Part shown: positions 28,687 through 34,252 of the stretch, piece after piece
Layout of the letters: each line of letters starts with the position of its first letter
How positions within the stretch are numbered: position 1 is the first letter of the stretch
Sequence record: NC_019767.1
Direction: 5' to 3' (one strand)
Length of the DNA stretch: 40,155 nt
DNA from: Escherichia phage HK544
Notes under the pieces: generated by a model
Databases searched by the model: none
The model's input: only the letters and a program-made list of their open reading frames with translations
Told to the model about the DNA's origin: nothing
Program-made: the position numbers and the translations under genes

Positions 28687-29403
<717 letters not shown>

Positions 29404-29410
29404 TTAAATC

Positions 29411-29474
29411 TATCACCGCAAGGGATAAATATCTAACACCGTGCGTGTTGACTATTTTACCTCTGGCGGTGATA
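29411..29474. promoter_or_regulatory. OR3-OR2-OR1 operators with divergent pRM and pR
   Basis: TATCACCGCAAGGGATA (OR3, 29411-29427), TAACACCGTGCGTGTTG (OR2, 29434-29450), TACCTCTGGCGGTGATA (OR1, 29458-29474); pR -35 TTGACT and -10 GATAAT. Confidence 0.85.
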
Positions 29475-29491
29475 ATGGTTGCATGTACTAA

Positions 29492-29701
<210 letters not shown>

Positions 29702-29740: not shown

Positions 29741-29819
29741 ATCAAATTAAACCACACCTATGGTGTATGCATTTATTTGCATACATTCAATCAATTGTTA
29801 TCTAAGGAAATACTTACAT

Positions 29820-30098
29820 ATGCAACTTACAAGTACTCGCAAGAAAGCGAATGCAATTACAAGCAACATCCTGAATCGAATTGCTGTACGTGGTCAGCGA
29901 AAGGTTGCCGACGCGTTAGGGATTAATGAATCGCAAATTTCTCGATGGAAAGATAGCTTCATCCCAAAAATGGGAATGCTTCTGGCTGTTCTTGAATGGG
30001 GTGTTGAAGACGAGGAGTTGGCAGAACCGGCTAAGAAAGTAGCCAGAATGCTGACAAAAGAAAAAGCCCCGAAGAACGGCGAATTCTTCGAGGCCTGA
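29820..30098 (+). CDS. cII: CII-like transcriptional activator (non-lambda allele)
   Basis: 92 aa from ATG 29820 (SD TAAGGAAA); HTH region SQISRWK...MLLAVLEWGV resembles lambda cII, but N- and C-terminal sequences differ. Confidence 0.7.
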   Translation: MQLTSTRKKANAITSNILNRIAVRGQRKVADALGINESQISRWKDSFIPKMGMLLAVLEWGVEDEELAEPAKKVARMLTKEKAPKNGEFFEA

Positions 30099-30132: not shown

Positions 30133-30294
30133 ATGACAAAACGTCGTAAGAAATACCAGGAAAAAGAAGAGATTCGACACCCTGATTCACCTGAGGGATT
30201 AGTGGTAGCCGCAGCAAATAACAGGGCGTTCGCAGAGCGCCTTGTTGGTGTTTACAGACTAGCCAAAGCAGGAGTGAAACATGGGCGTCGTTAA
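30133..30294 (+). CDS. small basic ORF (53 aa) between cII and the replication gene
   Basis: ATG 30133 with SD CAGGAG; Lys/Arg-rich N-terminus; 3' end overlaps the O-like gene start; below ORF-track cutoff. Confidence 0.3.
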   Translation: MTKRRKKYQEKEEIRHPDSPEGLVVAAANNRAFAERLVGVYRLAKAGVKHGRR

Positions 30295-31102
30295 GTTAGC
30301 TGATTACAGACCTCAACTGGAGGTCGTGGAGCATCGCGTGGCAGATACCGAAGATGGTTTCATGCGCGTTGCTAACGAGATTACCGACAGTCTGCTGATG
30401 GCTGATTTAACCGTCCGGCAGATGAAGGTGATGCTCGCTATCATGCGCAAGACATACGGATTCAATAAGCCGATGGATCGACTCACAAACACGCAGATAG
30501 CAGCCATGACAGGTATTCATCACACTCATGTTTGCGCTGCCAAGCGCCAGCTTATTGAGCGTAAATTCCTCATTGCTGATGGCGTGAAAATCGGAGTGAA
30601 CAAGGTGGTTTCTCAGTGGATTAGCCATGACAGCTTAACATTAGCTAAAACAGCTAATAAAACATTAGCCAAGTCGGCTAATGGGTATAAGCCAAGTCAG
30701 CTAAACACAAAAGACAATATACAAAAGACAATAAATACAAATACCCCCTTACCCCCTAGCGGGGGCGGCGATGGGCAGGTTAAACCTGAACGTCGCAAGG
30801 CAGAACGCATCGACTACGAATCCTTCCTGAACGCCTACAACACCGAAGTCGGTGACAGACTGCCACACGCTGTTGCGGTCAACGAGAAACGCAAACGCCG
30901 CCTGAAGAAAATCATCCCGCAACTGAAAACGCCAAACGTGGACGGTTTCAGAGCGTATGTCAGGGCGTTTGTACATCAGGCCAAGCCGTTTTACTTCGGA
31001 GACAACGACACGGGCTGGACGGCAGATTTTGATTACCTGCTGAGGGAAGACTCGTTAACGGGAGTTCGGGAAGGGAAGTTTGCAGACAGGGGGATTGCAT
31101 GA
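30281..31102 (+). CDS. replication initiator (lambda O-like N-terminal domain)
   Basis: 273 aa; segment [33 protein letters not shown] resembles the lambda O N-terminal region as recalled; internal iteron array; C-terminal half differs from lambda O. Confidence 0.7.
30621..30745. repeat. candidate replication origin: four palindromic 17-18 bp iterons plus AT-rich tract inside the O-like gene
   Basis: TTAGCCATGACAGCTTAA, TTAGCTAAAACAGCTAA, TTAGCCAAGTCGGCTAA and TAAGCCAAGTCAGCTAA at about 20-24 bp spacing, then ACACAAAAGACAATATACAAAAGACAATAAATACAAATAC. Confidence 0.5.
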
Positions 31103-32475
31103 AACAGGATATCGAAGCGAGCGTTATCGGTGGCCTGCTGATTGGTGGATTAACACCAACCGCCAGCGACGTTCTGGCAACGCTGGAGCCGGAAGCGTTT
31201 TCAATTCCGCTCTACCGGAAAGCCTTCGAGGTTATCCGCAAGCAGGCGAGAAACAGAAACCTAATCGACGCGCTGATGGTTGCCGAGGCGTGCGGAGAGG
31301 AGCATTTCACGTCAATCCTGATGACCAGCAAAAACTGCCCGAGTGCCGCAAACCTGAAGGGATATGCCGGAATGGTCGCGGATAACTATCACCGTCGTCT
31401 GGTGCTGGAAATCATGGATGAAATGCGTGAACCAATTCAGAGCGGAACCATCGATACATCGAGTCAGGCGATGGACGAGCTTGTAAAGCGTCTCTCAGCC
31501 ATCAGAAAGCCCCGTGACGAGGTTAAACCTGTACGGTTAGGGGAAATCATCACCGACTACACTGACACGCTTGACAGGCGTCTGAGGAACGGAGAAGAGT
31601 CAGATACCCTGAAGACCGGAATCGAAGAACTTGACGCTATCACCGGAGGGATGAACGCGGAAGACCTGGTGATTATCGCCGCTCGTCCTGGTATGGGGAA
31701 AACCGAACTGGCGCTGAAGATTGCCGAAGGTGTTGCAAGCCGTGTTATTCCTGGTTCTGACGTCCGGCGCGGAGTATTGATTTTCTCAATGGAAATGAGC
31801 GCATTGCAGATTGCAGAGCGAAGCATTGCCAACGCCGGGAGGATGTCGGTTAGCGTACTGCGAAATCCTGCATCGATGGATGACGAAGGCTGGGCGCGCG
31901 TTGCTAACGGCATGAATCAGCTTGCGGATTTGGATGTATGGGTAGTCGATGCATCGCGGTTATCGGTCGAAGAAATACGCTCAATCGCAGAACGGCACAA
32001 ACAGGAAAATCCAAACCTGTCACTCATCATGGCGGATTATCTTGGCCTGATTGAGAAGCCGAAAGCAGACCGCAACGACCTCGCAATTGCTCACATCTCA
32101 GGAAGCCTGAAGGCGATGGCGAAAGACCTGAAAACGCCTGTTATCTCCCTGAGTCAGCTTTCACGCGATGTTGAGAAGCGACCAAACAAACGCCCGACAA
32201 ACGCAGATTTGCGTGATTCAGGAAGCATTGAACAGGACGCAGACTCAATCATCATGCTCTATCGGGAAGCGGTATATGACGAGAACAGTAGCGCCGCGCC
32301 ATTTGCTGAAATCATCGTGACGAAAAACCGTTTTGGCTCGCTTGGTACGGTTTACCAGCGGTTCTGTAACGGACACTTTGTTGCATGTGACCAGGATGAA
32401 GCCAGACTGATTTGCACAGCATCAAATGCACCTGCTGCGCGTGGCAGACGATATGCGCAAGGGGCTGACGTATGA
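31099..32475 (+). CDS. replicative DNA helicase (DnaB family)
   Basis: 458 aa; Walker [15 protein letters not shown]; ATGA overlap with the O-like gene; P22-type replication arrangement. Confidence 0.85.
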
Positions 32476-32769: not shown

Positions 32770-33190
32770 AATTCGATCCCCAGCACATCAGCAAAACGCT
32801 ATTCACGCGGTACAGAAAATTCTTCCAGACCCAACCAAACCAATCGTAGTAACCATTCAGGAACGCAACCGCAGCTTAGACCAGAATCGAAAGCTTTGGG
32901 CTTGCCTTGGTGACGTCTCTCGTCAGGTTGAATGGCATGGTCGCTGGCTGGATGCAGAAAGCTGGAAGTGTGTGTTTACCGCAGCATTAAAGCAGCAGGA
33001 TGTTGTTCCTAACCTTGCCGGGAATGGCTTTGTTGTAATAGGCCAGTCAACCAGCAGGATGCGTGTAAACGAATTTGCGGAGCTATTAGAGCTTATACAG
33101 GCATTCGGTACAGAGCGTGGCGTTAAGTGGTCAGACGAAGCGAGACTGGCTCTGGAGTGGAAAGCGAGATGGGGAGATCGGGCTGCATGA
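32750..33190 (+). CDS. ninB: NinB recombination protein
   Basis: 146 aa, MKKLTFEIRSPAHQQNAIHAVQ.ILPDPTKPIVVTIQERNRSLDQNRKLWA...; near-identical to lambda NinB as recalled. Confidence 0.9.
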   Translation: MKKLTFEIRSPAHQQNAIHAVQKILPDPTKPIVVTIQERNRSLDQNRKLWACLGDVSRQVEWHGRWLDAESWKCVFTAALKQQDVVPNLAGNGFVVIGQSTSRMRVNEFAELLELIQAFGTERGVKWSDEARLALEWKARWGDRAA

Positions 33191-33887: not shown

Positions 33888-34252
33888 CAATGGATTATTC
33901 ACAGTTAAGTGATTTTGAAATTAACAAGCGAGTGGCAATTTGCTGTGGATTTGCTCCCGAAGATTGCGAAATCGCAAAGTTGGGAACATCAATCGTTGGT
34001 GTTGAGTGGGATGACGAAACTGGTTATGCAATAAAAACGGTTGATTACTGTAAAAGACCATCAGACGCATGGCCGATTATCACTGAAAACAACATCAGCA
34101 TAATTTTAGACAATCCCTCAATGCCGTGCGCTACAGACAACGCAAGGGACTTGTTTGATGATGCCGGACCGAATGTTGGTGTCGCATATGACAATCCACT
34201 CCGTGCCGCCATGATTGTCTTTCTCATGATTCAGGACGCCAATAATGCTTAG
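33884..34252 (+). CDS. nin-region hypothetical protein
   Basis: 122 aa from the ATG overlapping ninE stop; no family recognised. Confidence 0.45.

Follow-up and report, generated by a model that had tools for sequence, protein, structure and literature searches.

How does Escherichia phage HK544 begin the replication of its DNA, and is the site at which it would do so an origin of a new kind? The sequence analysed here is the record NC_019767.1 with a length of 40,155 nt; this whole stretch of DNA is called the window in the following, and all coordinates refer to it. HK544 belongs to the HK97-like lambdoid phages or prophages and its early region is mosaic; in this region an array of palindromic repeats and an adjoining A-rich tract are found inside the gene of an O-like replication initiator. 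Comparison with related sequences suggests, with a probability that we put at roughly 90%, that this element is the vegetative, theta-mode origin of an HK97-type lambdoid phage, located inside its own initiator gene. The early region comprises the following features.

28687-29400, minus strand: cI gene, lambda-like
29448-29476, plus strand: pR-type promoter TTGACT-17-GATAAT, assigned from a promoter scan and from its location, with the cI-like ORF on one side and the cro-like ORF on the other
29501-29701, plus strand: cro gene
29760-30098, plus strand: cII-family gene
30133-30294: ORF of 53 aa, PHROG 1331 (unknown function)
30281-31102, plus strand: O-like replication initiator gene, 273 aa, with the proposed origin inside (ORF, Pfam Phage_rep_O, PHROG 345)
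31099-32475, plus strand: DnaB-type replicative helicase gene, 458 aa (Pfam DnaB domains)

From the promoter at 29448-29476, the cro, cII, initiator and helicase genes would be transcribed, and this transcription would pass across the origin. By analogy with lambda, transcription from pR may also activate the HK544 origin (PMC7466680, PMC3349717). Two smaller features lie to the left of the array. The 53-aa ORF overlaps the start of the initiator gene by 14 nt, and a small ORF is present at the equivalent position in HK97 (gp53), P22 (orf48), Eho49 and PSTCR7lys. A minus-strand hairpin of 14 pairs followed by a T-run is found at 30064-30096, within the 3' end of the cII-family gene, where in P22 the terminator of the oop antisense RNA is annotated. 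A simple scan picked up no minus-strand promoter for this hairpin and Rfam gave no match to it; no Rfam family reached its gathering score anywhere in the 40,155-nt window.

The initiator matches Pfam Phage_rep_O (PF04492) over aa 19-113 with an E value of 4e-33 and PHROG 345, 'replication initiation O-like', with an E value of 1e-104. The start of the helicase gene (31099) overlaps the stop of the initiator gene, and its product matches DnaB_C (E 7e-78) and the DnaB N-terminal domain (E 4e-13); for both proteins the PHROGs search agrees with Pfam. The original prediction had assigned a DnaB-type helicase in place of lambda P as the partner of the initiator, and this was borne out, as the product of the next gene belongs to the DnaB family, is 90% identical in amino acid sequence to P22 gp12 and is not a homologue of lambda P. 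The initiator gene shows 98.8% nucleotide identity to gene O of HK97, and also to the corresponding gene of HK446, mEp213, Nil2, a number of Stx phages and P22-like phages of Salmonella, e.g. SPN9CC. The amino acid identity of the initiator to P22 gp18 is 51% overall, with a higher value for the C-domain (59%) than for the N-domain (42%). Two parts of the protein may serve in origin recognition.

30335-30619, plus strand: predicted N-terminal origin-binding domain, aa 19-113 of the initiator (Pfam match)
aa 76-85 of the initiator: putative recognition segment, from its invariance with HK97-type iterons

A structural model of the initiator was calculated with AlphaFold2 from an alignment of 26 sequences. 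The model is poor, with a mean pLDDT of 52.7, a pTM of 0.32 and pLDDT values below 50 for aa 108-175. It contains, at low confidence, helices at aa 70-77 and 81-93 and then a beta hairpin, which could correspond to a winged helix-turn-helix, but at this quality the model cannot be relied upon. Neither a sequence search nor a profile search returned a solved structure of a relative of the initiator. Because of the poor model and the lack of a solved relative, aa 76-85 are no more than a putative recognition helix. Two database proteins of 446-474 aa (P0006 and P0007) contain the initiator at 96-100% identity together with an extra domain, PF16532; these may be fusions or gene-call artefacts.

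Directly after the Phage_rep_O domain, the repeat finder detected a single family of four 18-nt copies (30620-30637, 30640-30657, 30664-30681 and 30687-30704), the consensus arms of which are TTAGCC-N5-GGCTAA. The iterons, defined below as 17-nt sites, encode aa 114-142 of the initiator, and iterons and A-rich tract together aa 114-155. The features of the proposed origin are unstranded and are listed from left to right.

30621-30637, no strand: iteron 1, TTAGCCATGACAGCTTA, arms complementary at 4/6 positions
30641-30657, no strand: iteron 2, TTAGCTAAAACAGCTAA, perfect 6-bp arms
30665-30681, no strand: iteron 3, TTAGCCAAGTCGGCTAA, perfect 6-bp arms
30688-30704, no strand: iteron 4, TAAGCCAAGTCAGCTAA, adjoining the A-rich tract, arms complementary at 4/6 positions
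30705-30743, no strand: A-rich tract, putative DNA unwinding element, ACACAAAAGACAATATACAAAAGACAATAAATACAAATA (low GC, homology to P22, HK97 and lambda)
30744-30765, no strand: C5/G5 inverted repeat CCCCCTTACCCCCTAGCGGGGG, proposed right border of the origin (a single-strand fold pairs CCCCC with GGGGG)

The original prediction, made from the sequence, had described four internally palindromic sites of 17-18 bp about 20-24 bp apart, followed by an AT-rich run of about 40 bp, all inside the O-like gene. Each of these points was confirmed. The starts of the iterons are spaced by 20, 24 and 23 bp; the arms are perfect at sites 2 and 3 and complementary at four of six positions at sites 1 and 4, which is comparable to lambda (6, 4, 5 and 3 of six). 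The run at 30705-30744 has a GC content of 22.5%, and array and tract both lie within the ORF 30281-31102. Iteron 4 is the most conserved of the four sites among the relatives.

The repeats are specific to this position. With up to three mismatches allowed, the 17-nt consensus TTAGCCAAGTCAGCTAA matches the four iteron sites alone in the 40,155 bases; in shuffled sequences, used as a control, 0.09 matches were obtained on average, and four matches were not reached in any of 100 shuffles. A search with the arms alone (TTAGC-N7-GCTAA, up to one mismatch) returned the four iterons and one outlier at 30018, with 1.09 matches expected and none of 100 shuffles reaching five. The outlier (30018-30034, TTGGCAGAACCGGCTAA, one mismatch) lies inside the cII-family gene about 600 bp to the left of the origin and, with about one match expected, is compatible with chance. 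DnaA boxes were not found near the origin, the nearest being located at 33895.

The GC content of 22.5% in the A-rich run compares with 49.8% for the whole window and places the run in the lowest 0.3% of all 40-nt windows. With 26 A residues it is also the most A-rich 40-mer of the whole window, and it holds a 14-nt tandem repeat (ACAAAAGACAATAT/ACAAAAGACAATAA, 30707-30734). The tract is 100% identical to that of P22 and HK97, and it shares ACACAAAAGAC...ACAAAAGA with lambda in register. The C5/G5 inverted repeat to the right of the tract has a P22 counterpart, which forms the final part of the rep_origin annotated there. As the P22 origin spans its iteron 1 to the last G of CCCCC..GGGGG, we infer by homology that the HK544 origin runs from 30621 to 30765 with the C5/G5 repeat as its border.

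An organisation like that of lambdoid origins had been predicted, with iterons differing from those of lambda, and a comparison with the origin in P22 gene 18 had been proposed. To compare the origins position by position, HK544, HK97, PSTCR7lys, Erwinia phage Eho49, P22, a Ferrimonas prophage, lambda and Salmonella phage S.Kent 1-2-1 were stacked without gaps, anchored on CACAAAAGA. In all of these sequences the sites start at -85, -65, -41 and -18, i.e. with a spacing of 20/24/23, and are adjoined by the A-rich tract. The offset of -85 of iteron 1 is that of lambda iteron 1 and also that of the start of the P22 rep_origin. The HK544 array therefore aligns gap-free and iteron for iteron with the ori iterons annotated in the lambda record (39034, 39054, 39078 and 39101, the last one extending to 39118) and with the rep_origin in P22 gene 18, which the RefSeq record NC_002371 places at 32840-32984, starting at iteron 1, and which is annotated as 'similar to phage lambda', i.e. 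by similarity. The stacked origins also have some spacer bases in common, e.g. TAAAACAT between sites 2 and 3, and the layout with the origin after the Phage_rep_O domain is common to HK544, lambda, P22, Eho49 and PSTCR7lys. The iteron arms fall into types: TTAGCC/GGCTAA in HK544 and HK97, TTTACC/GGTAAA in P22 and Ferrimonas, and TCCCTC/GAGGGA in lambda and S.Kent. The iterons of HK544 are thus indeed unlike those of lambda, and P22 has the same register and an identical A-rich tract with different arms. For P22 gene 18, four repeats of about 20 bp unlike those of lambda have been described (PMC8022706).

The type of the arms goes together with the type of the initiator. The segment aa 76-85 is invariant in all loci with HK97-type iterons and differs in P22-type and lambda-type loci. 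The HK544 segment is found with TTAGCC..GGCTAA sites even in an Arsenophonus prophage at 42% identity; LTGMAPTKCS of P22 and ATGLPETRCS of Ferrimonas go with TTTACC..GGTAAA sites, and ITKLPVKRCN of lambda and S.Kent goes with TCCCTC..GAGGGA sites. Across the sequences compared, which include few independent non-HK97 lineages, the N-domain of the initiator is therefore seen to co-vary with the iteron type. HK544 has the HK97-type origin specificity, as both its N-domain and its iterons are those of HK97. The Arsenophonus nasoniae prophage (L029, ~1770-1990) carries at least eight HK97-type iterons along with the same aa 76-85 segment; the anchor CACAAAAGA was not seen in the 220 bases inspected there.

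N-domain and iterons are also found in other combinations with the remainder of the module. In JEP4 (L005, 1003-1890) and many Stx2a phages (H68-H74), the Phage_rep_O N-domain is divergent and comes with CCGCACATGA-type repeats of its own; its junction to a C-domain and a helicase 95-99% identical to those of HK544 lies at aa 144, the border of iteron 4 and the A-rich tract. Conversely, two Photorhabdus prophages (L022 and L024) combine N-domain and iterons of the HK97 type with another C-domain and, in place of the DnaB-type helicase, a loader 49% identical to lambda P. These sequence comparisons indicate that N-domain and iterons are exchanged as one unit against a second unit consisting of the C-domain and the helicase or loader. 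Such a modular exchange agrees with the two-domain organisation published for lambda O, in which origin binding resides in the N-terminal 162 aa; in the same work, 'HK97' appears as a predicted replication-specificity type in Table 1 (PMC2629481).

The position of the mosaic junction raises the question of whether the A-rich tract, and perhaps the repeats, are retained chiefly because they provide, at the boundary of two modules, a homology 'linker' that promotes the exchange of initiator halves between lambdoid phages by recombination, rather than as an origin. The JEP4/Stx2a junction at exactly this border would fit such a role, as would the complete identity of the tract between P22 and the HK97-type genes at an N-domain identity of 42%. 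However, four palindromes in fixed helical register and their co-variation with the N-domain would be left unexplained, and experiments have shown the homologous tract of lambda to be a required unwinding element (PMC7466680). If a conserved origin core is a place of recombination, this is moreover to be expected as a consequence of origin function and is not an alternative to it. We therefore regard a role mainly as a recombination linker as very improbable.

The conservation of the array was analysed in a wider set of loci. A scan of one genome per species yielded 21 prophage loci with related N-domains. All four sites are retained in the 18 prophage loci that differ from HK544 and in Providencia phage PSTCR7lys (N-domain 52-92% identical, and 53-92% for the 18 loci taken alone), and in these 18 loci, a near-identical MAG contig and PSTCR7lys the sites are located exactly 84, 64, 40 and 17 nt upstream of ACACAAAAGA. 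The consensus derived from 76 sites of 19 loci is cATTAGCCAAgTCAGCTAAt, in which T1, G4/C5, G13/C14 and A17 are nearly invariant and the centre is variable. In a protein-guided codon alignment of 19 loci (HK544 and the 18 diverged loci), the pairwise identity of third codon positions averages 0.78 for the iterons and 0.89 for the first 22 nt of the A-rich tract, compared to 0.44 (range 0.40-0.49) for 84-nt windows of the N-domain. Purifying selection acts on the DNA of the sites, beyond what the protein requires. The O-like protein of PSTCR7lys (L006, 1001-2173) has 390 aa, about 120 of which form an insertion that separates the A-rich tract from the conserved C-domain; its four HK97-type iterons are all retained despite this insertion.

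These data also bear on the possibility that the iterons are a by-product of a repeated linker peptide (LAKTAN/LAKSAN) and have no role at the DNA level. Iterons 2 and 3 do share a reading frame and encode the similar peptides LAKTAN and LAKSAN, and the region has pLDDT values below 50 in the model, as would be expected for a linker. Iterons 1 and 4, however, are read in two other frames as ISHDSL and YKPSQL, and the use of three reading frames for one motif argues for selection on the DNA and not on a peptide repeat. The third-codon-position identity of 0.78, against 0.44 in the folded N-domain, points in the same direction, as does a spacing that is exact to the nucleotide in 20 loci and equal to that of lambda; a DNA palindrome at each site is likewise not needed for a peptide repeat. 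The peptide explanation is largely refuted by these findings and is in our view scarcely credible. That the palindromes are RNA or transcription regulatory sites, e.g. for autoregulation of the initiator or for leftward antisense termination at iteron 3, has next to no probability, since the terminator-like score of iteron 3 and its T-run on the minus strand is a by-product of the palindrome and the T-run, so that this candidate terminator was rejected, a T-run follows only one of the four sites, four terminator-like sites in the region compare with 2.6 expected, the folding of the single strand far better than shuffles (z = -5.0) is a trivial result of palindromic repeats, and neither an Rfam match nor, in the scan, a downstream minus-strand promoter-like site was found.

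Returning to the vegetative origin as the preferred reading, a course of events can be proposed from homology with ori lambda (PMC7466680, PMC3349717) and P22 (PMC8022706); initiator binding, unwinding, helicase recruitment and origin firing in HK544 are all drawn from these analogies. Rightward transcription from pR would lead to synthesis of the O-like initiator. Each palindromic iteron, TTAGCC-N5-GGCTAA, would be occupied by one dimer of the N-terminal Phage_rep_O domain, and four dimers at the fixed spacing of 20/24/23 bp may form an O-some-like complex that strains and opens the A-rich tract at 30705-30743. The C-terminal domain of the initiator would then bring in the phage DnaB-type helicase, as in the case of P22 genes 18 and 12, in place of lambda P and host DnaB, while the C5/G5 inverted repeat at 30744-30765 would form the right border of the origin. 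Rightward transcription from pR would supply the proteins and probably also activate the origin. In the Stx phages the iterons are not all bound equally (PMC7466680), and occupancy of all four sites in HK544 is for this reason not guaranteed. The fragment 30281-30760, which had been suggested for a plasmid replication assay, is devoid of the C-terminal domain of the initiator, the helicase gene and the promoter and so could not replicate alone. Our literature search found no experiments on HK97-type origins.

A more far-reaching reading can be formulated on this basis, namely that the HK97-type pair of the segment containing GIHHTH and TTAGCC-N5-GGCTAA sites represents an origin specificity so far uncharacterised by experiment, which uses exactly the rigid 20/24/23 scaffold of lambda and P22, and that the inverted repeat at the right border is a functional element selected at the DNA level rather than an accident of the coding sequence. 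In 9 of 25 loci the right border carries a perfect inverted repeat, the arms of which measure 7 bp or more, compared to 0-2 of 25 in nine control segments, although the 25 loci are related and neither count is made up of independent cases. The sequence of the repeat differs by lineage: besides C5/G5, GTCATC/GATGAC, GTCAGAG/CTCTGAC (lambda) and GTCCGAA/TTCGGAC (S.Kent) are found. We consider this combined proposal speculative and, taken as a whole, rather unlikely. If true, the origins of the HK97 type, lambda and P22 would represent a natural specificity-swap series for the recognition code between initiator and DNA, and the right-border repeat could be, e.g., a helicase-loading or boundary signal.

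The replication module of HK544 is very common in prophages, including Shiga-toxin phages and Salmonella P22-like phages. The same origin is present in 441 of 5,426 complete E. coli genomes (~8%), in 155 phage records and in 413 IMG/VR stretches, and a search with the initiator protein returned 1,570 database proteins at E <= 1e-5. In the open-access literature, no paper was found that prints the HK97 iteron strings or the string of the A-rich tract. The gain for annotation is a small one and consists in placing the origin at 30621-30765 and in the iteron consensus, which are unmarked in public records such as that of HK97. With respect to the diversification of lambdoid origins, geometry and unwinding tract are constant, iteron arms and N-domain vary jointly, and the unit of N-domain and iterons is swapped against different helicase or loader partners. 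The current understanding of such origins is left unchanged by HK544.

How, then, does the HK544 origin relate to known replication systems? With theta plasmids such as pSC101, R6K, RK2 and P1 it shares repeated initiator sites, an AT-rich unwinding element and an initiator encoded by the same replicon. The iterons of such plasmids are usually direct, asymmetric repeats that are bound by Rep monomers and lie outside the rep gene together with DnaA boxes, whereas the sites of HK544 are palindromic and located inside the initiator gene, with no DnaA box nearby. Closer to HK544 are the Stx phages 933W and P27, in which the origin is likewise situated in the O gene, is bound by initiator dimers and is followed by an AT-rich tract, but which have six iterons of the lambda type and an O/P pair of the lambda type (PMC7466680). 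Lambda itself has an initiator of the same Pfam family, four dyad-symmetric sites of about 18 bp with equal spacing, the adjoining ACACAAAAGAC...ACAAAAGA tract and an inverted repeat on the right. It differs from HK544 in the arms (TCCCTC/GAGGGA), in an unrelated C-terminal domain, in the sequence of the right-hand palindrome and in its partner protein, the loader P, which captures host DnaB, in place of a phage DnaB-type helicase.

The module type of HK544 is that of P22 genes 18 and 12: the four sites lie at the same place in the gene with the spacing 20/24/23, the A-rich tract and the C-run are 100% identical, and a gp18-type C-domain (59%) is followed by a DnaB-type helicase (90% identical to gp12). 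P22 differs in its arms (TTTACC/GGTAAA), in its N-domain (42% identity) and in the putative recognition segment (LTGMAPTKCS), so that HK544 does not have the identical iteron sequence that would define the P22 specificity. As both iteron arms and N-domain differ, a different origin specificity is expected; judged by sequence, the HK544 origin should work like that of P22 but should not be interchangeable with it.

The closest of these systems is that of HK97 (NC_002167, 29868-32062, gene O gp54 and gene P gp55), which has the same DnaB-type helicase gene and the same small upstream ORF. Over the 241 aligned bases at 30560-30800, HK97 and HK544 differ by two single bases: position 30628, central in iteron 1, is T in HK544 and G in HK97, and position 30759, part of the loop of the C/G inverted repeat, is G in HK544 and A in HK97. 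Apart from this central base in site 1 the iterons are identical, and the origin is essentially unchanged, although HK544 has a lambda-like cI/cro region where HK97 has its own. The HK97 record carries no annotated rep_origin feature. With an initiator gene 98.8% identical to gene O of HK97, the HK544 origin is not a novelty; it is an HK97-type member of the lambda/P22 origin family and not an origin of a new kind.
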